15,338 bases of DNA from a virus. Made by a program: the position numbers and the translations under genes. Shown in pieces: positions 4,183 through 15,338 of this stretch; positions within the stretch are counted from its first letter, which is position 1; each line of letters starts with the position of its first letter. The notes under the pieces are model-generated. The model searched no databases, had not been told where the DNA came from, and worked only from the letters and a program-made list of their open reading frames with translations. The stretch lies in UHGV virus genome UHGV-1839376; one strand, written 5' to 3'.

Positions 4183-6676
4183 TCTGGTCGTTAACCTTGA
4201 CGTTAACTCGTCGAAATTCAGCGAGCAGCTTAACTACGTCAAAAAAGAATTAAAACAGACCGGCAATGCGGCAAACGACGAAGCGTTACGTATCCAGCAG
4301 TCCTTCATCCGCCAGGAGAACGCCGCGCGTAAGGCCGGTATTTCAGTGGGTCAGTATAACGCCGCAATGCGTATGCTCCCGGCGCAGTTTACCGATGTGG
4401 CCACGCAGCTGGCAGGTGGGCAGAACCCCTGGCTGATTCTGCTTCAGCAGGGTGGTCAGGTTAAGGACTCCTTTGGCGGGATCATCCCGACATTCCGGGC
4501 GCTGATTGGGACGGTTTCCCCGTTGATGGTCGGCATTGGTGCATTGTCCGTTGCAACGGGCGCGTTGTTCTATGCCTGGTACCAGGGCTCTTCCACTCTG
4601 TCTGATTTCAACAAAACGCTGGTACTGTCGGGCAACACAGCCGGACTGACAGCTGACCGCATTCTGGCGCTGGCGCGGAACGGACAGGCAGCGGGGCTGA
4701 CCTTCAACCAGACCAGTGAAGCGCTGACCGAGCTTATCAACGCGGGGGTGCGTGCTGGCTCGCGCTTTGATGACATGAGCCAGGCGGTGTCGCGGTTTAC
4801 CGATGCCTCCGGCGTGCCGGTGGAGAAAGTCGCAGCAGCCTACGGCAAGCTCGCAACGGACCCGACATCGGGCCTGATCGCGATGGCCCAGCAGTTCCAT
4901 AACGTTACCGCTGAACAGATTGCCCATGTGGCGCAGCTGCAGCGTGCCGGTGATGAGGCTGGCGCACTGCAGGCGGCTAACGAGGCTGCTACAGCCGGAT
5001 TCAACGATCAGACCAAAGCCATCCGCGACAATATGGGGACGATAGAGTCTTCAGCGGACTCCCTGAAGCGCGCCTTCAAGTCGATGTGGGATGCAGCCCT
5101 CGATATTGGCCGACCTGACACCGCGCAGGAGATGGTGGCAAAAGCCGAAGCCGCGTTCAAAAAAGCTGATGAAATCTGGAACCTGCGTAAAGGTGACCGA
5201 TATGTCAATGATGAGGCTCGCGCCCGATTCTGGAATGACCGCGAAACGGCCAGGCTTGCGCTGGATATGGCGCAGCAGCAGGCGGGAATTGCCAGGGCGA
5301 ACGAAGAGAATGCATCGCGCGAAGCGGCTGCGGAATCGGATCGCCAGAAGTATGCTGCGCAGGCACAGGCAAACTATGCCAAAACGCAGACGGCACTGGA
5401 GAAATACACGGCCAGGCAGAGCGAGCTCAACAAGGCGCTGAAAGAGGGGCGGATCCTCCAGGCTGACTACAACATCAACCTGGCTGCCGCGAAAAAAGAG
5501 TACGAAGACACCCTTAAAAAGCCGAAGAAAACACCTGCAGTCAGGACTCCTGCCGGTACCCGTGCAACCGATGCGGCCAGCGCCCAGACGATGGAGCTGG
5601 AAGCACAGCTGCGCACCCTGCAGGAGCATAAGGGGATAAATGACACCATCAGCCAGCAGCGTCAGGAGCTGTGGCGTAAGCAGTCCCGTTTTACGGTTCT
5701 GGAAGAGGCCGCGAAGACCCGGACGCTTTCTGCCGAGGAAAAATCCCTGCTGGCCAGTAAAAGCGAGGTGCTTTCCCGTGCGGAGCTGAACGCGAAGCTC
5801 GGCGATCAGATAGTGGCGCAGGAGCGGCTTAATCGCCTGCAGGATACGTCCCAAAAATACGTCACGCAGATCGGCGAGAAAACCCGAGCCCTGGCGGAAA
5901 GTGCTGGTATGAGCAGTCGTGCAGCACAACGCCGCAACGAGGAGGCCCAGCTTCTTCAGGGGTGGAAAAATGGTGGAGGTTCCGAAAACGATGCCGGTTA
6001 TCAGAATGAGCTGCAGGGGCTGCATGCGTATTACGCCGAGCAGGATAAGCTTCGGGGTGACTGGCAATCCGGAGCCAAATCCGCATGGGCAGATTATGTT
6101 GATTCTGCTTCTGATGCTTATGGCCAGATGAAGTCGTTTGCCAGCAGTACGTTTGATGGCATTGGGCAAAATATGGCTGACATGCTGACGCGCGGAAAGG
6201 CTGACTGGGCTGACTTCACCCGCTCCACGCTCTCCATGCTGACACAGATCCTGCTGAAACAGGCGATGGTAGGCCTGGTGGATTCAGCATCAACCGCGCT
6301 GGGATTTGCAGGTGGCGGTTATACCGGTTCAGGCGGGAAATATGAGCCAGCAGGTGTCGTTCACCGTGGTGAGTTTGTTTTCACCAAAGAGGCTACCAGC
6401 AGGATCGGCGTCGGCAATCTTTACCGGATGATGAAAGGCTATGCAACGGGAGGGTATGTCGGGGGCGGTGGTACAGGCCCGGCTGCAGCACCTTTCGGTG
6501 TCAGTGTGTATGCCCCGGTGACGGTCGAGAATGCTTCCGGTAACGCACAGCAGCAAAACGACGGAGACAGGCTGGGTAAGGCGTATCAGCAGGTGATTAA
6601 CAAATCTGTCAATGATGGTATCGCCAGGGCAATCCAGCCCGGTGGGCTTATCTGGAATGCGACCAATCGCAGGTAA
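4160..6676 (+). CDS. H: Tail tape measure protein (lambda gpH-like)
   Basis: 838 aa; long blocks such as GISVGQYNAAMRMLPAQFTDVATQLAGGQNPWLILLQQGGQVKDSFGG and GGKYEPAGVVHRGEFVFTKEATSRIGVGNLYRMMKGYATGGYVG match lambda H as recalled. AGGAGG RBS; start overlaps the T stop. Confidence 0.92.
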   Translation: MAQTAVGDLVVNLDVNSSKFSEQLNYVKKELKQTGNAANDEALRIQQSFIRQENAARKAGISVGQYNAAMRMLPAQFTDVATQLAGGQNPWLILLQQGGQVKDSFGGIIPTFRALIGTVSPLMVGIGALSVATGALFYAWYQGSSTLSDFNKTLVLSGNTAGLTADRILALARNGQAAGLTFNQTSEALTELINAGVRAGSRFDDMSQAVSRFTDASGVPVEKVAAAYGKLATDPTSGLIAMAQQFHNVTAEQIAHVAQLQRAGDEAGALQAANEAATAGFNDQTKAIRDNMGTIESSADSLKRAFKSMWDAALDIGRPDTAQEMVAKAEAAFKKADEIWNLRKGDRYVNDEARARFWNDRETARLALDMAQQQAGIARANEENASREAAAESDRQKYAAQAQANYAKTQTALEKYTARQSELNKALKEGRILQADYNINLAAAKKEYEDTLKKPKKTPAVRTPAGTRATDAASAQTMELEAQLRTLQEHKGINDTISQQRQELWRKQSRFTVLEEAAKTRTLSAEEKSLLASKSEVLSRAELNAKLGDQIVAQERLNRLQDTSQKYVTQIGEKTRALAESAGMSSRAAQRRNEEAQLLQGWKNGGGSENDAGYQNELQGLHAYYAEQDKLRGDWQSGAKSAWADYVDSASDAYGQMKSFASSTFDGIGQNMADMLTRGKADWADFTRSTLSMLTQILLKQAMVGLVDSASTALGFAGGGYTGSGGKYEPAGVVHRGEFVFTKEATSRIGVGNLYRMMKGYATGGYVGGGGTGPAAAPFGVSVYAPVTVENASGNAQQQNDGDRLGKAYQQVINKSVNDGIARAIQPGGLIWNATNRR

Positions 6677-6681
6677 CAGTT

Positions 6682-7029
6682 ATGACGATAGAAACATTCC
6701 CCTGGGGCATTAAGGTTTCCAGCCAGCCCACCGAGGGAAGTAAAGACATAGTCAGGAAAGTCCAGTTCGGCGACGGGTACGCACAGGTGAGCGGCTCCGG
6801 CCTGAATGATGAGATTCGCACCTATGAATATTCCTTTTCAGGAGATCCGACTACAGCGAATGAAATCCATGCCTTCCTTCGTCGGCATAAAGTGAAGTCA
6901 TTTATTTTCACTCCGCCTTTCGGCGATACCGCGCTGTGGCGTGTAGAGGCTGACACGCTCAAAAAGGTGGTTAAAAACGTAAAAGTGATAACCGTAACCG
7001 CAACGTTTGAACAGGCATTTACACCATGA
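6682..7029 (+). CDS. M: Minor tail protein (lambda gpM-like)
   Basis: Size, position after H and the VRKVQFGDGY motif match lambda M (VRKVRFGDGY as recalled). Confidence 0.85.
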   Translation: MTIETFPWGIKVSSQPTEGSKDIVRKVQFGDGYAQVSGSGLNDEIRTYEYSFSGDPTTANEIHAFLRRHKVKSFIFTPPFGDTALWRVEADTLKKVVKNVKVITVTATFEQAFTP

Positions 7030-7781
7030 GTCTTAATGCTGATTATCAAAAACTTGAGCCGGGCAATGAAGTCCGGCTTTTTTCTGTCGATGGTACAGCG
7101 TTCGGTATGTCAGATGTGCTCCGCTTCCACGCACACAATATCGCGCACACCCCGGAAGAGATTGAAGCCGCAGGCGGCGACGAGAATAAACTTCCGGCGA
7201 AGTCCATCTGGTGGCAGGGGGAGGAGTATAAAGCCTGGCCGTGTCAGGTTGAGGGTATTGAAGCGACCACGGATGGTACCAGCCCACAGCCAAAACTGAG
7301 GGTGGCGAACCTGGACAGCTCGATCTCAGCGCTCTGTCTGGCGTATGACGATCTGCTGCAGGCGAAAGTGAGTATCCACGACACGCTGGCACAGTATCTG
7401 GACGCCAGAAATTTTCCGCAGGGCAATCCCACTGCAGACCCGTCACAGGAAAAGCTGAAGGTCTTTTATATCGATGCCAGAAGCACCGAGACGGATGAAG
7501 TTGTCGAATTTACGCTTTCCAGTCCGATGGATTTACAGGGCCAGATGATTCCGACGCGTCAGCTGCATTCGTTATGCAGCTGGTGCATCCGGAACAAGTA
7601 CCGGACCGGCGACGGCTGCGACTATGCCGGAACGCGCTATTTCGACAAAAACAATAATCCGGTTGACGATCCCTCGCTGGATGTCTGCAACGGCACGCTG
7701 ACGGCCTGCAAGCTCCGGCACGGAGACAGCAACGAACTGCCGTTCGGCGGTTTCCCGGGTACATCTCTTATCAGGAGCTGA
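7026..7781 (+). CDS. L: Minor tail protein (lambda gpL-like) with C-terminal cysteine cluster
   Basis: C-terminal CSWCIRNKYRTGDGCDYAG...CNGTLTACKLRHGDSNELPFGGFPG resembles lambda L as recalled. ATGA overlap with M. Confidence 0.88.
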   Translation: MSLNADYQKLEPGNEVRLFSVDGTAFGMSDVLRFHAHNIAHTPEEIEAAGGDENKLPAKSIWWQGEEYKAWPCQVEGIEATTDGTSPQPKLRVANLDSSISALCLAYDDLLQAKVSIHDTLAQYLDARNFPQGNPTADPSQEKLKVFYIDARSTETDEVVEFTLSSPMDLQGQMIPTRQLHSLCSWCIRNKYRTGDGCDYAGTRYFDKNNNPVDDPSLDVCNGTLTACKLRHGDSNELPFGGFPGTSLIRS

Positions 7782-9142: not shown

Positions 9143-12100
9143 ATGGCTAAAACAATTACCGGACGAAAAGGCGGGAGCTCCAGTTCCCGAACTCCCACCG
9201 AACAGCCTGATGATCTGCAATCTGTAGCGAAGGCAAAGATCCTCGTTGCGCTTGGGGAAGGGGAGTTTGCTGGACAGCTCACCGGGAAGGATATCTACCT
9301 GGACGGAACGGCGCTGGAGAACGCCGACGGCTCCCAAAACTTCAGCGGCGTTACGTGGGAATTTCGTCCGGGGACTCAGGCACAAAAATATATTCAGGGT
9401 ATCCCCGGCACCGAAAATGAAATCAGCGTGGGCACCGAAGTGTCAAGCACCACCGGCTGGACACATACCTTTACCAACACGCAACTGTCAGCCGTTCGCC
9501 TGCGCCTCAAGTGGCCATCGCTTTTTAAACAGGAGGATGATGGCGATCTGGTTGGCTATTCAATTAACTACGCTATTGATCTGCAGACCGATGGCGGCAC
9601 CTGGCAGACGGTACTTAATACCAGCGTAACCGGCAAGACAACTTCCGGCTACGAACGCAGCCATCGCATTGACCTACCGCAGGCAGGCAGCACATGGACG
9701 GTGCGCCTGCGTAAGCTAACGGCGGATGCCAACAGCGCGAAAATTGGTGACACGATGACGCTGCAGAGCTATACAGAGGTCATTGACGCCAAACTGCGTT
9801 ATCCAAATACCGCGCTGCTGTACATCGAATTCGACTCAAGCCAGTTTAACGGCTCTATCCCGCAAATATCCTGCGAACCGCGAGGGCGTGTAATCCGCGT
9901 TCCGGATACGTATGACCCGGAGACCCGCACCTATAGCGGCACATGGACGGGGGCGTTTAAGTGGGCGTGGACGGATAATCCAGCCTGGATTTTTTACGAT
10001 CTGGTGGTGAGCGACCGCTTTGGGCTGGGCAATCGCCTGACGGCGGCCAATATTGATAAATGGACGCTTTACCAGGTCGCGCAATATTGCGATCAGCCGG
10101 TTCCTGATGGTAAAGGCGGTAGCGGCACTGAGCCTCGCTATACCTGCAACGTGTATGTGCAGGAGAGGAATGACGCCTATACCGTGTTACGAGATTTTGC
10201 GGCGATATTCCGGGGCATGACTTACTGGGGTGGCGATCAAATCGTTGCGCTGGCGGATATGCCCCGCGATGTGGATTACAGCTACACGCGTGCAAACGTG
10301 GTTAATGGGCGCTTTACCTATTCGGGCAGCACCACGAAAACCCGCTATACCACAGCACTGGTTTCCTGGTCCGATCCGGGTAATGCCTACGCGGATGCGA
10401 TGGAGCCTGTATTTGAGCAGGATCTCGTTGCTCGCTTTGGCACAAATCAGCTCGAAATGACAGCCATTGGTTGTACCAGACAGTCAGAAGCGAACCGAAA
10501 GGGGCGCTGGGGTATTCTCACCAACAACAAGGATCGCGTTGTTTCGTTCGATGTCGGGCTGGACGGAAACATACCGCAGCCTGGCTATATCATCGCTGTG
10601 GCAGACGAGCTGCTTTCCGGAAAGGTTATGGGCGGACGCATCAGCGCCGTTAATGGTCGCGTTATCAAACTTGACCGTGTAGCTGATGCGGCAGCAGGTG
10701 ATCGCCTTATCCTCAACCTTCCCTCCGGAGCGTCACAGAGCAGGACAATTCAGGCGGTTAACGGGGAATCGGTCACAGTCACCACTGCATACAGTGAGAC
10801 GCCGCAGGCCGAAGCTGTCTGGGTGGTTGAGTCAAACGAACTGTACGCACAGCAGTACCGTGTTGTGAGCGTCACTGATAACGATGATGGCACTTTCACC
10901 ATTACCGGTGCATGGCACGATCCGGATAAATATGCCCGAATCGATACCGGAGCCATTATTGACCAGCGGCCGGTGAGCGTGATCCCGCCGGGCAATCAGT
11001 CACCGCCAGACAACATCGTAATCAGTTCGTTTTCGGTGGTGCAGCAGAATATCAGCGTCGAAACCATGCGCGTGAGCTGGGACCAGGCGCAGAATGCTAT
11101 CGCCTATGAAGCGCAATGGCGCCGCAACGACGGGAACTGGGTTAACGTGCCGCGCAGTTCCACCACGTCATTCGACGTTCCTGGGATTTATGCCGGGCGC
11201 TATCTGGTACGTGTACGCGCCATCAATGCCGCAGAAATTTCATCCGGGTGGGGATATTCGGAAGAGAAAACGCTGACGGGTAAAGTGGGCAATCCGCCGA
11301 AACCGGTCGGCTTCATCGCTTCCGATAATGTGGTATTCGGTATCGAGCTGAGCTGGGGATTCCCGGCGAACACCGACGACACGCTGAAGACGGAAATTCA
11401 GTACAGTCTGACTGGGACGGAAGACGATGCGATGCTGCTGGCAGACGTACCCTATCCGCAGCGCAAGTATCAGCAGATGGGCCTAAAGGCTGGGCAAATT
11501 TTCTGGTACCGCGCGCAGCTGGTGGACCGCAGCGGAAACGAATCAGGGTATACAGACTTTGTGCGCGGGCAGGCCAGCATCGATGTATCCGATATCACCG
11601 ATGCAATCCTGGAGGACATGAAAGGCTCCGATACGTTCAAAGACCTGATCGAGAACGCGGTAGACAGCAATGAAAAAATTGCTGGTATGGCTGACGACAT
11701 TAAACAGGCCAACGACGAACTGGCGCAACAGGCGCAGGATATCGCCAAAAACGCCCAGGATATCGGGAAGGTTCAGACCAGCGTTACAAACCTGTCGAGC
11801 ACGGTCGGAGATGTGTCTTCTTCTCTGAGCAAGCTTGAGCAGACAGTGGCGACGGCTGATACCGCGCTGAGCCAGCGCATCGATAACATCAGCGTGTCTG
11901 TGGACGGTATGACGGGTGGTGTAAAGAACTCGGCTATCGCTATAATCCAGAACGGGCTGGCACAGGTTACTTCCCGCCGCTCTCAAACCGTGACAAACGC
12001 GGGTAACAGCGCCAGCATTGACCGTATCGATACCACCATTGCAGATACCAGCCAGGCCGTTGCTCGCGCGCTGGTGACGCTTGATGCGTCTGCCGGTGGC

Positions 12101-12688
12101 AATGTTTCCAACTCCACCGACCTCACCGAAACGCTGGCTGATTTCACTCAGGCGTCGGCCACGAAAATCAACACGCTGACTGTTACCTCCGGAGAAAATA
12201 CTGCAGCCATTACGGTAAACGCAAAGGCCGTGGCTGATGTGAATAATAATCTCAGTGCGATGTACAACATTAAAGTGGGTGTCTCCAGCAACGGGCAGTA
12301 TTACGCTGCGGGGATGGGGATCGGCGTTGAGAATACGCCGTCCGGGATGCAGTCGCAGGTTATCTTCCTGGCTGACCGCTTCGCCGTCACCACGGCAGCA
12401 GGTAACAGCGTGGCTTTGCCGTTTGTGATCCAGAACGGGCAGACATTCATCCGGGCCAGTTTCATCCAGGACGGCACTATCAGCAACGCAAAGATTGGTA
12501 ATTTTATCCAGTCGAACAATTATGTTGCTGGTTCTGCTGGCTGGAAGCTTGATAAAGGGGGGACGTTTGAGAACTACGGTTCGACTGCTGGTGAGGGAGC
12601 CATGAAACTGACAAATCAGACGATCAGCGTCAAAGATGGCAGTAATGTTCTTAGGGTGCAGGTTGGCCGATTAACGGGAGTATTCTGA
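9143..12688 (+). CDS. J: Tail tip / central fibre host-specificity protein (lambda gpJ-like), with a C-terminal region unlike lambda J
   Basis: 1181 aa; blocks such as YTEVIDAKLRYPNTALLYIEFDSSQF and KWTLYQVAQYCDQPVPDG...TEPRYTCNVY match lambda J as recalled. The C-terminal part, from a coiled-coil-like region onward, differs from lambda J. Confidence 0.92.
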   Translation: MAKTITGRKGGSSSSRTPTEQPDDLQSVAKAKILVALGEGEFAGQLTGKDIYLDGTALENADGSQNFSGVTWEFRPGTQAQKYIQGIPGTENEISVGTEVSSTTGWTHTFTNTQLSAVRLRLKWPSLFKQEDDGDLVGYSINYAIDLQTDGGTWQTVLNTSVTGKTTSGYERSHRIDLPQAGSTWTVRLRKLTADANSAKIGDTMTLQSYTEVIDAKLRYPNTALLYIEFDSSQFNGSIPQISCEPRGRVIRVPDTYDPETRTYSGTWTGAFKWAWTDNPAWIFYDLVVSDRFGLGNRLTAANIDKWTLYQVAQYCDQPVPDGKGGSGTEPRYTCNVYVQERNDAYTVLRDFAAIFRGMTYWGGDQIVALADMPRDVDYSYTRANVVNGRFTYSGSTTKTRYTTALVSWSDPGNAYADAMEPVFEQDLVARFGTNQLEMTAIGCTRQSEANRKGRWGILTNNKDRVVSFDVGLDGNIPQPGYIIAVADELLSGKVMGGRISAVNGRVIKLDRVADAAAGDRLILNLPSGASQSRTIQAVNGESVTVTTAYSETPQAEAVWVVESNELYAQQYRVVSVTDNDDGTFTITGAWHDPDKYARIDTGAIIDQRPVSVIPPGNQSPPDNIVISSFSVVQQNISVETMRVSWDQAQNAIAYEAQWRRNDGNWVNVPRSSTTSFDVPGIYAGRYLVRVRAINAAEISSGWGYSEEKTLTGKVGNPPKPVGFIASDNVVFGIELSWGFPANTDDTLKTEIQYSLTGTEDDAMLLADVPYPQRKYQQMGLKAGQIFWYRAQLVDRSGNESGYTDFVRGQASIDVSDITDAILEDMKGSDTFKDLIENAVDSNEKIAGMADDIKQANDELAQQAQDIAKNAQDIGKVQTSVTNLSSTVGDVSSSLSKLEQTVATADTALSQRIDNISVSVDGMTGGVKNSAIAIIQNGLAQVTSRRSQTVTNAGNSASIDRIDTTIADTSQAVARALVTLDASAGGNVSNSTDLTETLADFTQASATKINTLTVTSGENTAAITVNAKAVADVNNNLSAMYNIKVGVSSNGQYYAAGMGIGVENTPSGMQSQVIFLADRFAVTTAAGNSVALPFVIQNGQTFIRASFIQDGTISNAKIGNFIQSNNYVAGSAGWKLDKGGTFENYGSTAGEGAMKLTNQTISVKDGSNVLRVQVGRLTGVF

Positions 12689-12689
12689 A

Positions 12690-12992
12690 ATGGCTTATGG
12701 AATACAGACCTGGGATGCTTCAGGAAAACCCAACAACTATGGCATCAAACCCGTTTCCGTCGTTGGGCGAATACAGCTGGCTGCCGGGCAAACCTCCGGC
12801 AGCTGGTCTTTTACGGTGCCCTCAGGAATGAAAGTTGGTTTTGTTCTTTCACTTGATGAAGGAGGTAACAGCGTAGGGCGGCGCATTGTCGCGTCAGGGA
12901 GCACAATAACCGTAAGCGCTGCATCTTCTGTAGGTCTGGGTAATTATCCGGCCTCAAAGTGTGAAGTGGTCGTTTTCATGGAGAAAGCATAA
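12690..12992 (+). CDS. Hypothetical protein (100 aa), first gene of the J-distal cassette; function unknown
   Basis: ATG 2 nt after the J stop, GGGAG RBS 9 nt upstream; stop overlaps the next start (TAATG). No recognisable catalytic motif. Confidence 0.7.
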   Translation: MAYGIQTWDASGKPNNYGIKPVSVVGRIQLAAGQTSGSWSFTVPSGMKVGFVLSLDEGGNSVGRRIVASGSTITVSAASSVGLGNYPASKCEVVVFMEKA

Positions 12993-13666
12993 TGGCCGAA
13001 TTTGGCGCGATGATATTAATGGACAACGGGAACCCATTTGTAACGCCCCAGTCAACGCCTTTTTGTCTTTACGGCAAGTACACTTTCAACTCCTCTGCTA
13101 ATGGCAGTTCGCAGCAGGTTGCTCAGAATATTGCATTAAATGCTGACTACCCTGTGATGGTATTTATCAGGACCACAAATACCGCCCAGCCCACGCCAGT
13201 AATATCTTACCGGAACGGAGGAAATGTATATGTCGCGGGGGTTAATCCCTATAACCAGAGCTTCACGTTAACCGCATATATATTTGCCATATTTCCCCAG
13301 ACGTTACCGAAATGGGGGATGGCCATCTGGGATGCGGCAGGAAAGCTGGTGCTCACTAATGAGTCCCGGGTGTTGTCCGACCTACAGACAATTGGAACGC
13401 CTGGCGCAAACGGAGGGATAAATATCGATCAGACACTTAGCGGGCCATGGGCTGTTGCACCTGCACAGCTTGGCCAAAGCATCGTTGTGAATAACTCAAC
13501 CCAGCCTCCGACAATCTACACCATTAATGCTTATTCGGCGTGCAGGTTTGACGGGGCCAATACGAGGATAAACGCAGGGGGGTCCTCCACTGGCACAGGC
13601 TCTCCGGGGGGGCTAACGAAGGCTGGCATTTCCTTAACCGCGATAAATACAGCGGCCTATGACTGA
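12992..13666 (+). CDS. Hypothetical protein (224 aa), second gene of the J-distal cassette; appears to hold two copies of the domain found in the preceding protein
   Basis: Translationally coupled to the upstream ORF; GGAG RBS. Internal segment KWGMAIWDAAGK resembles the N-terminus MAYGIQTWDASGK of the preceding protein, and the underlying DNA is also similar (16 of 19 nt). Confidence 0.7.
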   Translation: MAEFGAMILMDNGNPFVTPQSTPFCLYGKYTFNSSANGSSQQVAQNIALNADYPVMVFIRTTNTAQPTPVISYRNGGNVYVAGVNPYNQSFTLTAYIFAIFPQTLPKWGMAIWDAAGKLVLTNESRVLSDLQTIGTPGANGGINIDQTLSGPWAVAPAQLGQSIVVNNSTQPPTIYTINAYSACRFDGANTRINAGGSSTGTGSPGGLTKAGISLTAINTAAYD

Positions 13667-13718
13667 TTGATCGTTTTGGGCGATCAATAACTGATAATTG
13701 ATCTATCAAATCAATTAT
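13666..13718 (+). promoter_or_regulatory. Intergenic inverted-repeat cluster: 8-bp stem hairpin (13666-13688) and perfect 9-bp inverted repeat ATAATTGAT-N7-ATCAATTAT (13694-13718); candidate operator/regulatory region upstream of the lipoprotein gene
   Basis: Repeats read directly from the sequence; TTGAT/ATCAA half-sites recur at least five times within 55 bp. No confident -35/-10 pair identified. Confidence 0.4.
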
Positions 13719-13777
13719 ACCCACCTCTTTCATGTTGGTATTGTCTAAGTTCATGAATACCTCTGGATATCATCAAA

Positions 13778-14011
13778 ATGATTAAGCTTCTTATCGGTAT
13801 GGCTTGCGCTGCCATGCTTTCAGGTTGCGCTGGTGTACTTGAGAAACAGGAACCGATTTGCAGCGGCACGGCATATATGGGTGGCCATGAGAATACCGTT
13901 ATGATTTACGCCGTTCGAAAGCAAAACAACCAGACGCAATACCGGGCCGGATATCCCTTTAACTGGCGCTGGGTAAGTGCGAACACATTCACAAGCACGA
14001 CATGTAAATAA
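13778..14011 (+). CDS. cor: Small outer-membrane lipoprotein, Cor/Llp-like (putative receptor-blocking superinfection exclusion protein)
   Basis: 77 aa; signal peptide with lipobox LSGC (MIKLLIGMACAAMLSGC); two further Cys (ICSGTAYMGGH and C-terminal TTCK) in a pattern reminiscent of T5 Llp as recalled. Lies between J and the tail fibre gene. Weak RBS. Confidence 0.6.
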   Translation: MIKLLIGMACAAMLSGCAGVLEKQEPICSGTAYMGGHENTVMIYAVRKQNNQTQYRAGYPFNWRWVSANTFTSTTCK

Positions 14012-14031
14012 CTCATGACTTTCAATGCAAA

Positions 14032-14053
14032 CCTCGCCTCGGCGGGGTTTTTT
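14032..14053 (+). terminator. Rho-independent terminator after the lipoprotein gene (stem CCTCGC/GCGGGG with one G-U pair, CTCG loop, 6-T run)
   Basis: Read directly from the sequence, 21 nt after the TAA stop at 14009-14011. Confidence 0.55.
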
Positions 14054-14069
14054 ATTGCCTGGAGAAAAT

Positions 14070-15338
14070 ATGCTTTATAACACAGGAACTATCTCTATTA
14101 ACGGAAATACCGCAACCGGATCCGGTACAAACTGGACTGCACCGGCCAGCCAGGTTCGCGCTGGCCAGACGATTATTGTCATGTCTAACCCGGTTCAGAT
14201 GTTCCAGATTTCATCCGTGAATAGCGCCACGTCAATGACGGTAACGCCTGCTGCATCACCGGCGCTGAGCGGCCAGAAGTACGGCATTCTGGTATCAGAC
14301 AATATCTCGGTTGATGGACTGGCACAGGCTATGTCGCAGCTCATCAAAGAGTACGACGAGAACATTGGCGCGTGGGAGGCGTTCGCCACCACATCAGCAA
14401 ACCAGAGCATCACCGTCACCATAAACGGCACCCCTGTTACGATCCCCGGCATCGGTAAACTGGCGCAGAAAGGGAGCAACGGTGCGCTTGCTGTTGCAGA
14501 CGGCGGGACCGGGGCAACGACTGCAGCAGCCGCTCGATCAAGCCTCGGTTTGGGAAGTAGTGCAATCCTCAATGTAGGTAATGCTGCAGGCAATGTCATC
14601 ACACGAGGAAGCGGCATATCAGCAAGCTACTCTGATGTAAACCTTGTGCTCTTTATGAAGAGCATTGGATCTGGATGGTATCGAAATTTGCTGGCCGGGA
14701 TAGGCATGTACCAATATTCAGCAGGATTTTATTCGTATACTGGTGATACGCATGCCTATATCCAGGTTGACTATGCTACCGGGAATGTCAGAGCTCTAGG
14801 GACGGGAGATAATCTGTTAGCGGACGGTATAGTAAAAATCAACACGCTATATGGAACAGTAAATACAACAAAATCCAGCGATGGCACCATTAAAGCAGCA
14901 TCACCAGTGGCCCGTATTGTGACGAGTCGTGACGTATGCCAGCGAGCTGATATAGCGGAGGATGGTTTCTCCTGGTGCGGCTGTGGAACGGCTAACCCTG
15001 AAGCAGAGGGAGTAACCCTTTCTCGCCTCGATGTTGGGATTTACATGCTAACCGGCTCGGCTGGCTTGGCGTCAGATGGATGGCAACTGCTGCCCCCAAT
15101 GGACCCTGGCGGCATGGGAGAGTTGGGAGTGGTTGAGGCAGAGCAAACCGATAGCGGCGAGCTGACAATCCGTCTTTTCAAGCGAAAATATATCCTGAGC
15201 GATGAAGGTGAGGTCATCAAAACCAAAGGTGAACCGATTGACGTCCCGGCGAACAGCTGGATCGATGTTCGTCTGGATATGCCAGTGGATAGCATCTGGA
15301 ACCCCAAAGTTTCCGGTTCTTCTCTCGAACTCCAGTGA
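14070..15338 (+). CDS. Side tail fibre protein (422 aa) with conserved N-terminal region and variable C-terminal domain
   Basis: GGAG RBS 5 nt before ATG 14070. The motif GALAVADGGTGATTAAAARSSLGLGS is typical of phage tail fibre proteins. The ORF-track start at 14025 would run through the terminator hairpin. Stop TGA at 15336-15338 coincides with the window end. Confidence 0.8.
   Translation: MLYNTGTISINGNTATGSGTNWTAPASQVRAGQTIIVMSNPVQMFQISSVNSATSMTVTPAASPALSGQKYGILVSDNISVDGLAQAMSQLIKEYDENIGAWEAFATTSANQSITVTINGTPVTIPGIGKLAQKGSNGALAVADGGTGATTAAAARSSLGLGSSAILNVGNAAGNVITRGSGISASYSDVNLVLFMKSIGSGWYRNLLAGIGMYQYSAGFYSYTGDTHAYIQVDYATGNVRALGTGDNLLADGIVKINTLYGTVNTTKSSDGTIKAASPVARIVTSRDVCQRADIAEDGFSWCGCGTANPEAEGVTLSRLDVGIYMLTGSAGLASDGWQLLPPMDPGGMGELGVVEAEQTDSGELTIRLFKRKYILSDEGEVIKTKGEPIDVPANSWIDVRLDMPVDSIWNPKVSGSSLELQ

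Follow-up and report, generated by a model that had tools for sequence, protein, structure and literature searches.

A cor exclusion lipoprotein gene with its own terminator in the tail region of an HK225/mEp237/N15-like siphophage

The 77-codon open reading frame at positions 13778-14011 of the window, by which we mean the whole 15,338-nucleotide stretch of the virus genome UHGV-1839376 that was analysed, is a real gene and, judged by its sequence, an ordinary copy of cor: the gene is already known, it lies in the usual place, and its product is identical to an annotated protein. The fuller reading, to which we assign a probability of about 85%, is that this cor serves lysogenic conversion and superinfection exclusion, as in temperate siphophages of the phi80, HK022 and N15 types, through a product that disables FhuA. 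Features described below are on the plus strand unless stated otherwise.

The reading frame, which is among those listed for the window, starts with ATG and encodes 77 amino acids followed by a stop codon; its translation is MIKLLIGMACAAMLSGCAGVLEKQEPICSGTAYMGGHENTVMIYAVRKQNNQTQYRAGYPFNWRWVSANTFTSTTCK. Residues 1-76 align with profile positions 1-76 of 78 in the NCBIfam model NF047972, "phage exclusion lipoprotein Cor" (135 bits, E 6.4e-40), an equivalog model with a cut-off of 31 bits, and the protein also matches PHROG 1119, "Cor superinfection exclusion protein" (E 2.6e-34). The top match in a collection of 5.8 billion proteins (P0001, present on 159 contigs and named "phage exclusion lipoprotein Cor [Escherichia coli]") is 100% identical, and in E. 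coli UPEC85 (NZ_CM137000.1), which has a prophage of 99.4% identity, RefSeq calls the same gene cor. Homology to Cor, which the original prediction had put forward from the sequence letters, is firmly borne out by these matches. No Pfam family scored above threshold for the protein; DUF4223 and MiAMP1 (E 0.06-0.1) were considered and read as noise.

A tblastn search with the window protein found a homologue in 241 phage records, HK022, phi80 and T1 among them. Identity amounts to 89.6% with the Cor proteins of HK022, mEp235 and HK106, 79% with those of mEp213 and phi80, 61% with that of N15, and 33% with that of T1. The Cor proteins of the lambdoid and N15-type temperate phages HK022, phi80, mEp167 and N15 share with the window protein the 77-residue length, the lipobox and the cysteines, and the differences are only allelic and mosaic; in its mature part, HK022 Cor differs at a single residue. 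Further away, T1-like virulent phages (Drexlerviridae) encode a homologous small lipoprotein at 33-34% identity (tblastn E 5e-7), and T1 cor likewise adjoins gp22/gp23 homologues and the tail fibre gene. In contrast to the window gene, however, T1 cor runs in the direction opposite to the T1 tail genes and belongs to a virulent phage, where it is hence no lysogenic-conversion gene.

By the Lsp/Lol rules for signal peptides, a lipoprotein precursor is cleaved before the cysteine of the lipobox and this cysteine is lipidated. Reading the sequence directly by rules, which was the one method used for this call, we recognize a lipoprotein signal peptide in residues 1-16 (13778-13825) with predicted cleavage before C17: a short basic n-region (K3) and a 10-residue hydrophobic core precede the lipobox L14-S15-G16-C17, the LSGC of the 77-residue protein that had been noticed originally. 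The phi80 record FN582354.1 marks the equivalent stretch of its Cor as a signal peptide for SPase II. The mature protein (61 residues, 13826-14008) has the cysteine predicted to be lipidated at its N-terminus, followed by an alanine at +2 (outer-membrane sorting), and contains C28 and the penultimate residue C76, which are predicted to form a disulfide. In 28 Cor homologues, C17 and C76 are invariant and C28 is retained in at least 90%, and the conserved Cor core residues (G35, I43, Y44, Q52, T53, G58, P60, W65 and F71) are all found in the window protein. The Shine-Dalgarno sequence of the gene is weak, consisting of GGA 10 nucleotides upstream of the ATG.

Comparison with T5 Llp, the sequence of which was verified against PDB 8a60_B and 7qjf_A, gives different answers for sequence and for structure. 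BLASTP of Cor against Llp gave no alignment, hhalign of a 28-sequence Cor profile against Llp aligned the signal peptide only (residues 1-22), the NCBIfam Cor model did not match Llp, a PDB sequence search with Cor found no match at E <= 10, and tblastn with Llp returned only relatives at identities of at least 90%. Llp nonetheless matches PHROG 1119 too, over its full length (E 1.1e-19), and in a MAFFT alignment with 21% identity its three cysteines line up with Cor residues C17, C28 and C76. C28 and C76, which are Cys12 and Cys60 of the mature protein, align with the Cys11-Cys58 disulfide of Llp (PMC9586334). An AF2 model built from the Cor alignment is all beta, with a mean pLDDT of 82 and about 90 over residues 30-77; its best structural match is Llp in the FhuA-bound form, which suggests that the modelled protein has the Llp fold. 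A Foldseek search against the PDB discriminated less well, with Llp only at rank 36 (E 0.34), amid generic Tudor/SH3-like barrels; in BFVD, rank 1 was a Cor protein, rank 2 a 75-residue protein of the T5-like phage DT571/2 (30% identity) and rank 3 a lipoprotein of the T5-like phage slur09, which encodes a 91%-identical Llp.

The term "Llp-like", as applied in the original prediction, is valid for the fold and the cysteine pattern, whereas Cor stands outside the narrow Llp sequence family. The alignments proposed along with it gave the identities stated above for the Cor proteins and about 21% for Llp. Its more detailed cysteine pattern is present in the window protein as C28-SGTA-Y33-M34-GG-H37 together with C76, but the T5 Llp motif is C-x3-YM-x2-H, one residue shorter than the C-x4 form of the window, and YM-x2-H was rejected as a signature of the Cor family, since positions 33, 34 and 37 vary within Cor (I-V and Q in phi80). 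The Cor-Llp relation is already in the literature: an identity of about 20%, including the disulfide, has been described with the proposal that Cor works like Llp (PMC9586334), and AF models of the T1, phi80, mEp167 and HK022 Cor proteins have placed Cor and Llp in one family (bioRxiv 10.64898/2026.03.26.714494). T5 Llp is unlike the Cor of the window in being the product of an early gene of a virulent phage.

The entire window represents the head-tail region of a siphophage of the HK225/mEp237/N15 kind. An ORF at 9143-12688 encodes a J-type tail tip/host specificity protein; over its C-terminal 270 residues, identity is 95.2% with phi80 J and about 80% with HK022 J. Because of the 95% identity to phi80 J in this part, the phage of the window likely uses FhuA, in agreement with what had been suggested for it. 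The position of cor between J and the tail fibre gene holds as well, with the correction that cor does not directly follow J: two ORFs intervene, one of 100 residues (12690-12992) homologous to phi80 gp22 and matching PHROG 557, "outer membrane protein" (E 2.4e-36), and one of 224 residues (12992-13666) homologous to phi80 gp23 and matching PHROG 425, "membrane associated protein" (E 3.8e-80). Neither belongs to a Pfam or NCBIfam family. The order J, gp22-like ORF, gp23-like ORF, cor, terminator, stf is that of phi80, HK022, mEp213 and N15, and with the same neighbours in T1 the place is indeed the one where phi80/N15/T1-type phages carry cor. In phi80, HK022 and N15, the space between J and cor is always taken by these two conserved ORFs of the gp22/gp23 type, which in T1 adjoin cor; their products may be accessory components of the tail tip, inherited together with a J tip of the FhuA type.

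In the UPEC85 prophage (L003, locus 6252-7501), stf is followed by a tail-fibre pseudogene fragment and a recombinase gene and then by yciI and tonB; about 1 kb separates these two chromosomal genes from the tail-fibre end of the match. A prophage with a predicted blocker of the TonB-dependent receptor FhuA thus sits next to tonB in this strain, at a site that we take to be the phi80 attachment region.

An intrinsic terminator with a 9-bp stem, a CTCG loop and a T6 run follows cor at 14029-14053, as recognized from the terminator pattern and the RNA fold. The hairpin spans 14029-14050 and the T-run 14048-14053, so that the terminator of its own with which cor had been credited is present and its last base coincides with the end of the feature as first delimited. 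The RNA fold has an energy of -16.1 kcal/mol (z = -2.8), and one of 200 shuffled sequences was as stable. Terminators are annotated at the same place in phi80 and mEp213, whereas the annotated terminator of N15, although also located between cor and the tail fibre gene, lies further downstream of cor.

The side tail fibre gene stf begins at 14070 and continues to 15338 (PHROG 1591, E 2.4e-130; Pfam PF25670, E 7.3e-31). As listed, its ORF reaches further upstream, to an ATG at 14025 that falls within the cor terminator; annotation in relatives places the start at the ATG of 14070, with GGAG ahead of it. The ORF and the window end on the same base (15338), and the UPEC85 homologue is 45 nucleotides longer. 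Within the beginning of stf, phi80 has an annotated antisense "moron" gene, gene 25 (85 residues), to which the window shows 88% tblastn similarity at 14078-14332 on the minus strand. There the frame is broken into separate minus-strand ORFs at 14075-14182 and 14195-14617, which casts doubt on gp25 as a conserved gene.

The phi80 record annotates cor itself as a moron, with a -35, an extended -10, a start site, a rho-independent terminator and the signal peptide for SPase II. Compared with phi80, the 117 bases ahead of cor in the window differ at three, all of them outside the annotated -35, extended -10 and start site. Aligned onto the phi80 cor annotation, the -35 equivalent is ATTATA at 13714-13719, a weak match, the extended -10 equivalent is TGGTATTGT at 13736-13744, and the start site maps to about 13752. 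The TTGGTAT core of the extended -10 is kept in mEp213 and HK022, and LAU1 has TTGTTAT. We infer a cor promoter in the window, the identity to the annotated phi80 feature being the one ground for it; a consensus sigma-70 scan of 13500-14200 called no promoter.

Reaching from the end of the gp23-like ORF into the -35, a conserved upstream element with two inverted repeats and three GATC sites (13666-13718, assigned to neither strand) was found by repeat search and comparison with relatives. The first repeat, ATTGATCG-N7-CGATCAAT, is located directly after the stop of the gp23-like ORF; the second, ATAATTGAT-N7-ATCAATTAT, is perfect and overlaps the cor -35. Of the four ATTGATC heptamers in the window, three fall in 13666-13718. 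The three GATC (Dam) sites lie inside 35 bp; the second most compact triple takes up 159 bp, and while the total of GATC sites in the window is as expected, this triple is the sole such cluster there. Enterobacter phage LAU1 shares the element with phi80 and mEp213, and HK022, N15 and Kpn_R1 have it in part. These 50 bp, with their two inverted repeats from ATTGATC half-sites over and upstream of the cor -35, could conceivably form an operator or a Dam/SeqA-sensitive switch, a reading that we consider doubtful; if it were true, expression of cor would be conditional or phase-variable and not constitutive. A literature search on regulation of the cor promoter found no report specific to cor. 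A Fur box upstream of cor, considered with iron-dependent co-regulation with fhuA in mind, was rejected, the best match to GATAATGATAATCATTATC being 10/19, below the shuffled mode of 11.

The cor locus is mosaic, with a junction within 13740-13860 that separates a phi80-type 5' side from an HK022-type mature coding part. Up to about 13740, the DNA of the window is 95-100% identical to phi80; the signal-peptide segment of cor is 85% identical to phi80 and to HK022 alike; and for the mature coding part at 13860-13980, identity is 100% with HK022 but no more than 70-90% with phi80.

In the mechanism that we propose, the 77-residue Cor precursor would be exported, signal peptidase II would cut it before C17, and C17 would be lipidated. 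The beta domain of about 60 residues, clamped by the C28-C76 disulfide, would then bind the periplasmic face of the ferrichrome transporter FhuA and switch it to a form unusable by the receptor-binding proteins of phages, and transport of ferrichrome and colicin M would stop as well. A lysogen would in this way be resistant to phages using FhuA for entry, among them relatives of the resident prophage, the J tip of which is itself phi80-like. The gene appears to be built as a moron, with a short upstream region in which the promoter elements are identical to those annotated for phi80 cor, and its own intrinsic terminator. When Llp acts on FhuA, the extracellular loops EL7 and EL8 fold inward and the phage binding site is occluded (PMC9586334). 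Direct periplasmic binding to FhuA is established for Llp; by analogy with T5 Llp, we infer periplasmic binding and an allosteric loop rearrangement for Cor, and a mechanism of the Llp type would be the most likely one. The passage in PMC3594210 that cites Uc-Mass et al. 2004 has Cor of HK022, N15 and phi80 inactivating FhuA, lowering ferrichrome uptake and protecting against colicin M, and by analogy with these orthologues the same three effects would be expected of the window Cor.

Cor may, on the other hand, not act like Llp and instead block adsorption by forming a complex with abundant outer membrane proteins (OmpA, OmpC, OmpF and others), so that FhuA is masked or perturbed; the work of Arguijo-Hernandez et al., as summarised in PMC9311878, leaves room for such a less direct action. 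The undetectable pairwise sequence similarity of Cor and Llp also speaks for it, as does the 2026 preprint, according to which the way Cor excludes phages at the molecular level has still to be elucidated (bioRxiv 10.64898/2026.03.26.714494); yet the match of the Cor model to FhuA-bound Llp, the cysteine pair common to both proteins and the inhibition of ferrichrome uptake by Cor (PMC3594210), which fits direct action on FhuA, make it unlikely. It is highly improbable that the target is a TonB-dependent transporter other than FhuA, as thought for the Llp-type lipoproteins of some T5-like phages, in which case a lysogen would be unprotected against FhuA-dependent phages: the mature Cor is one position off that of HK022, the Cor proteins of HK022, N15 and phi80 act on FhuA (PMC3594210), and the J tip encoded nearby is nearly that of the FhuA-dependent phage phi80, even though lipoprotein-mediated exclusion is probably used for many TonB-dependent transporters (PMC9586334) and the second BFVD match comes from DT571/2.

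Action on FhuA, which we prefer, could also serve the phage at another stage than lysogeny. Because cor is co-directional inside the late tail operon, it is probably also transcribed late in lytic growth. T5 Llp is known to prevent the loss of newly made virions to FhuA on cell debris after lysis, and cor might be transcribed with the late tail operon only and not be expressed in the lysogen, its main role being to spare progeny virions from FhuA in lysis debris. Its shared direction with J and stf, the sigma-70 scan without a promoter, the poor -35 and the weak Shine-Dalgarno sequence would all suit exclusively late expression, which we nevertheless judge rather unlikely, given that none of the three bases that set the upstream region apart from that of phi80 cor falls in the promoter elements (annotated extended -10, start site), that a dedicated terminator follows the gene, and that Cor is described as protecting lysogens (PMC3594210). 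Protection of the lysogen and a role in lysis debris are compatible and not mutually exclusive.

Beyond correct annotation, the cor gene of the window has little significance. To the Cor family it adds a further mosaic allele, which combines a predicted promoter of the phi80 type with a mature protein of the HK022 type. By analogy with the orthologues, lysogens of this prophage are predicted to resist FhuA-dependent phages (T1, phi80 and relatives) and colicin M, the predicted cost to the lysogen being a lower uptake of ferrichrome, and this prediction would be useful in phage typing or phage therapy with such strains.
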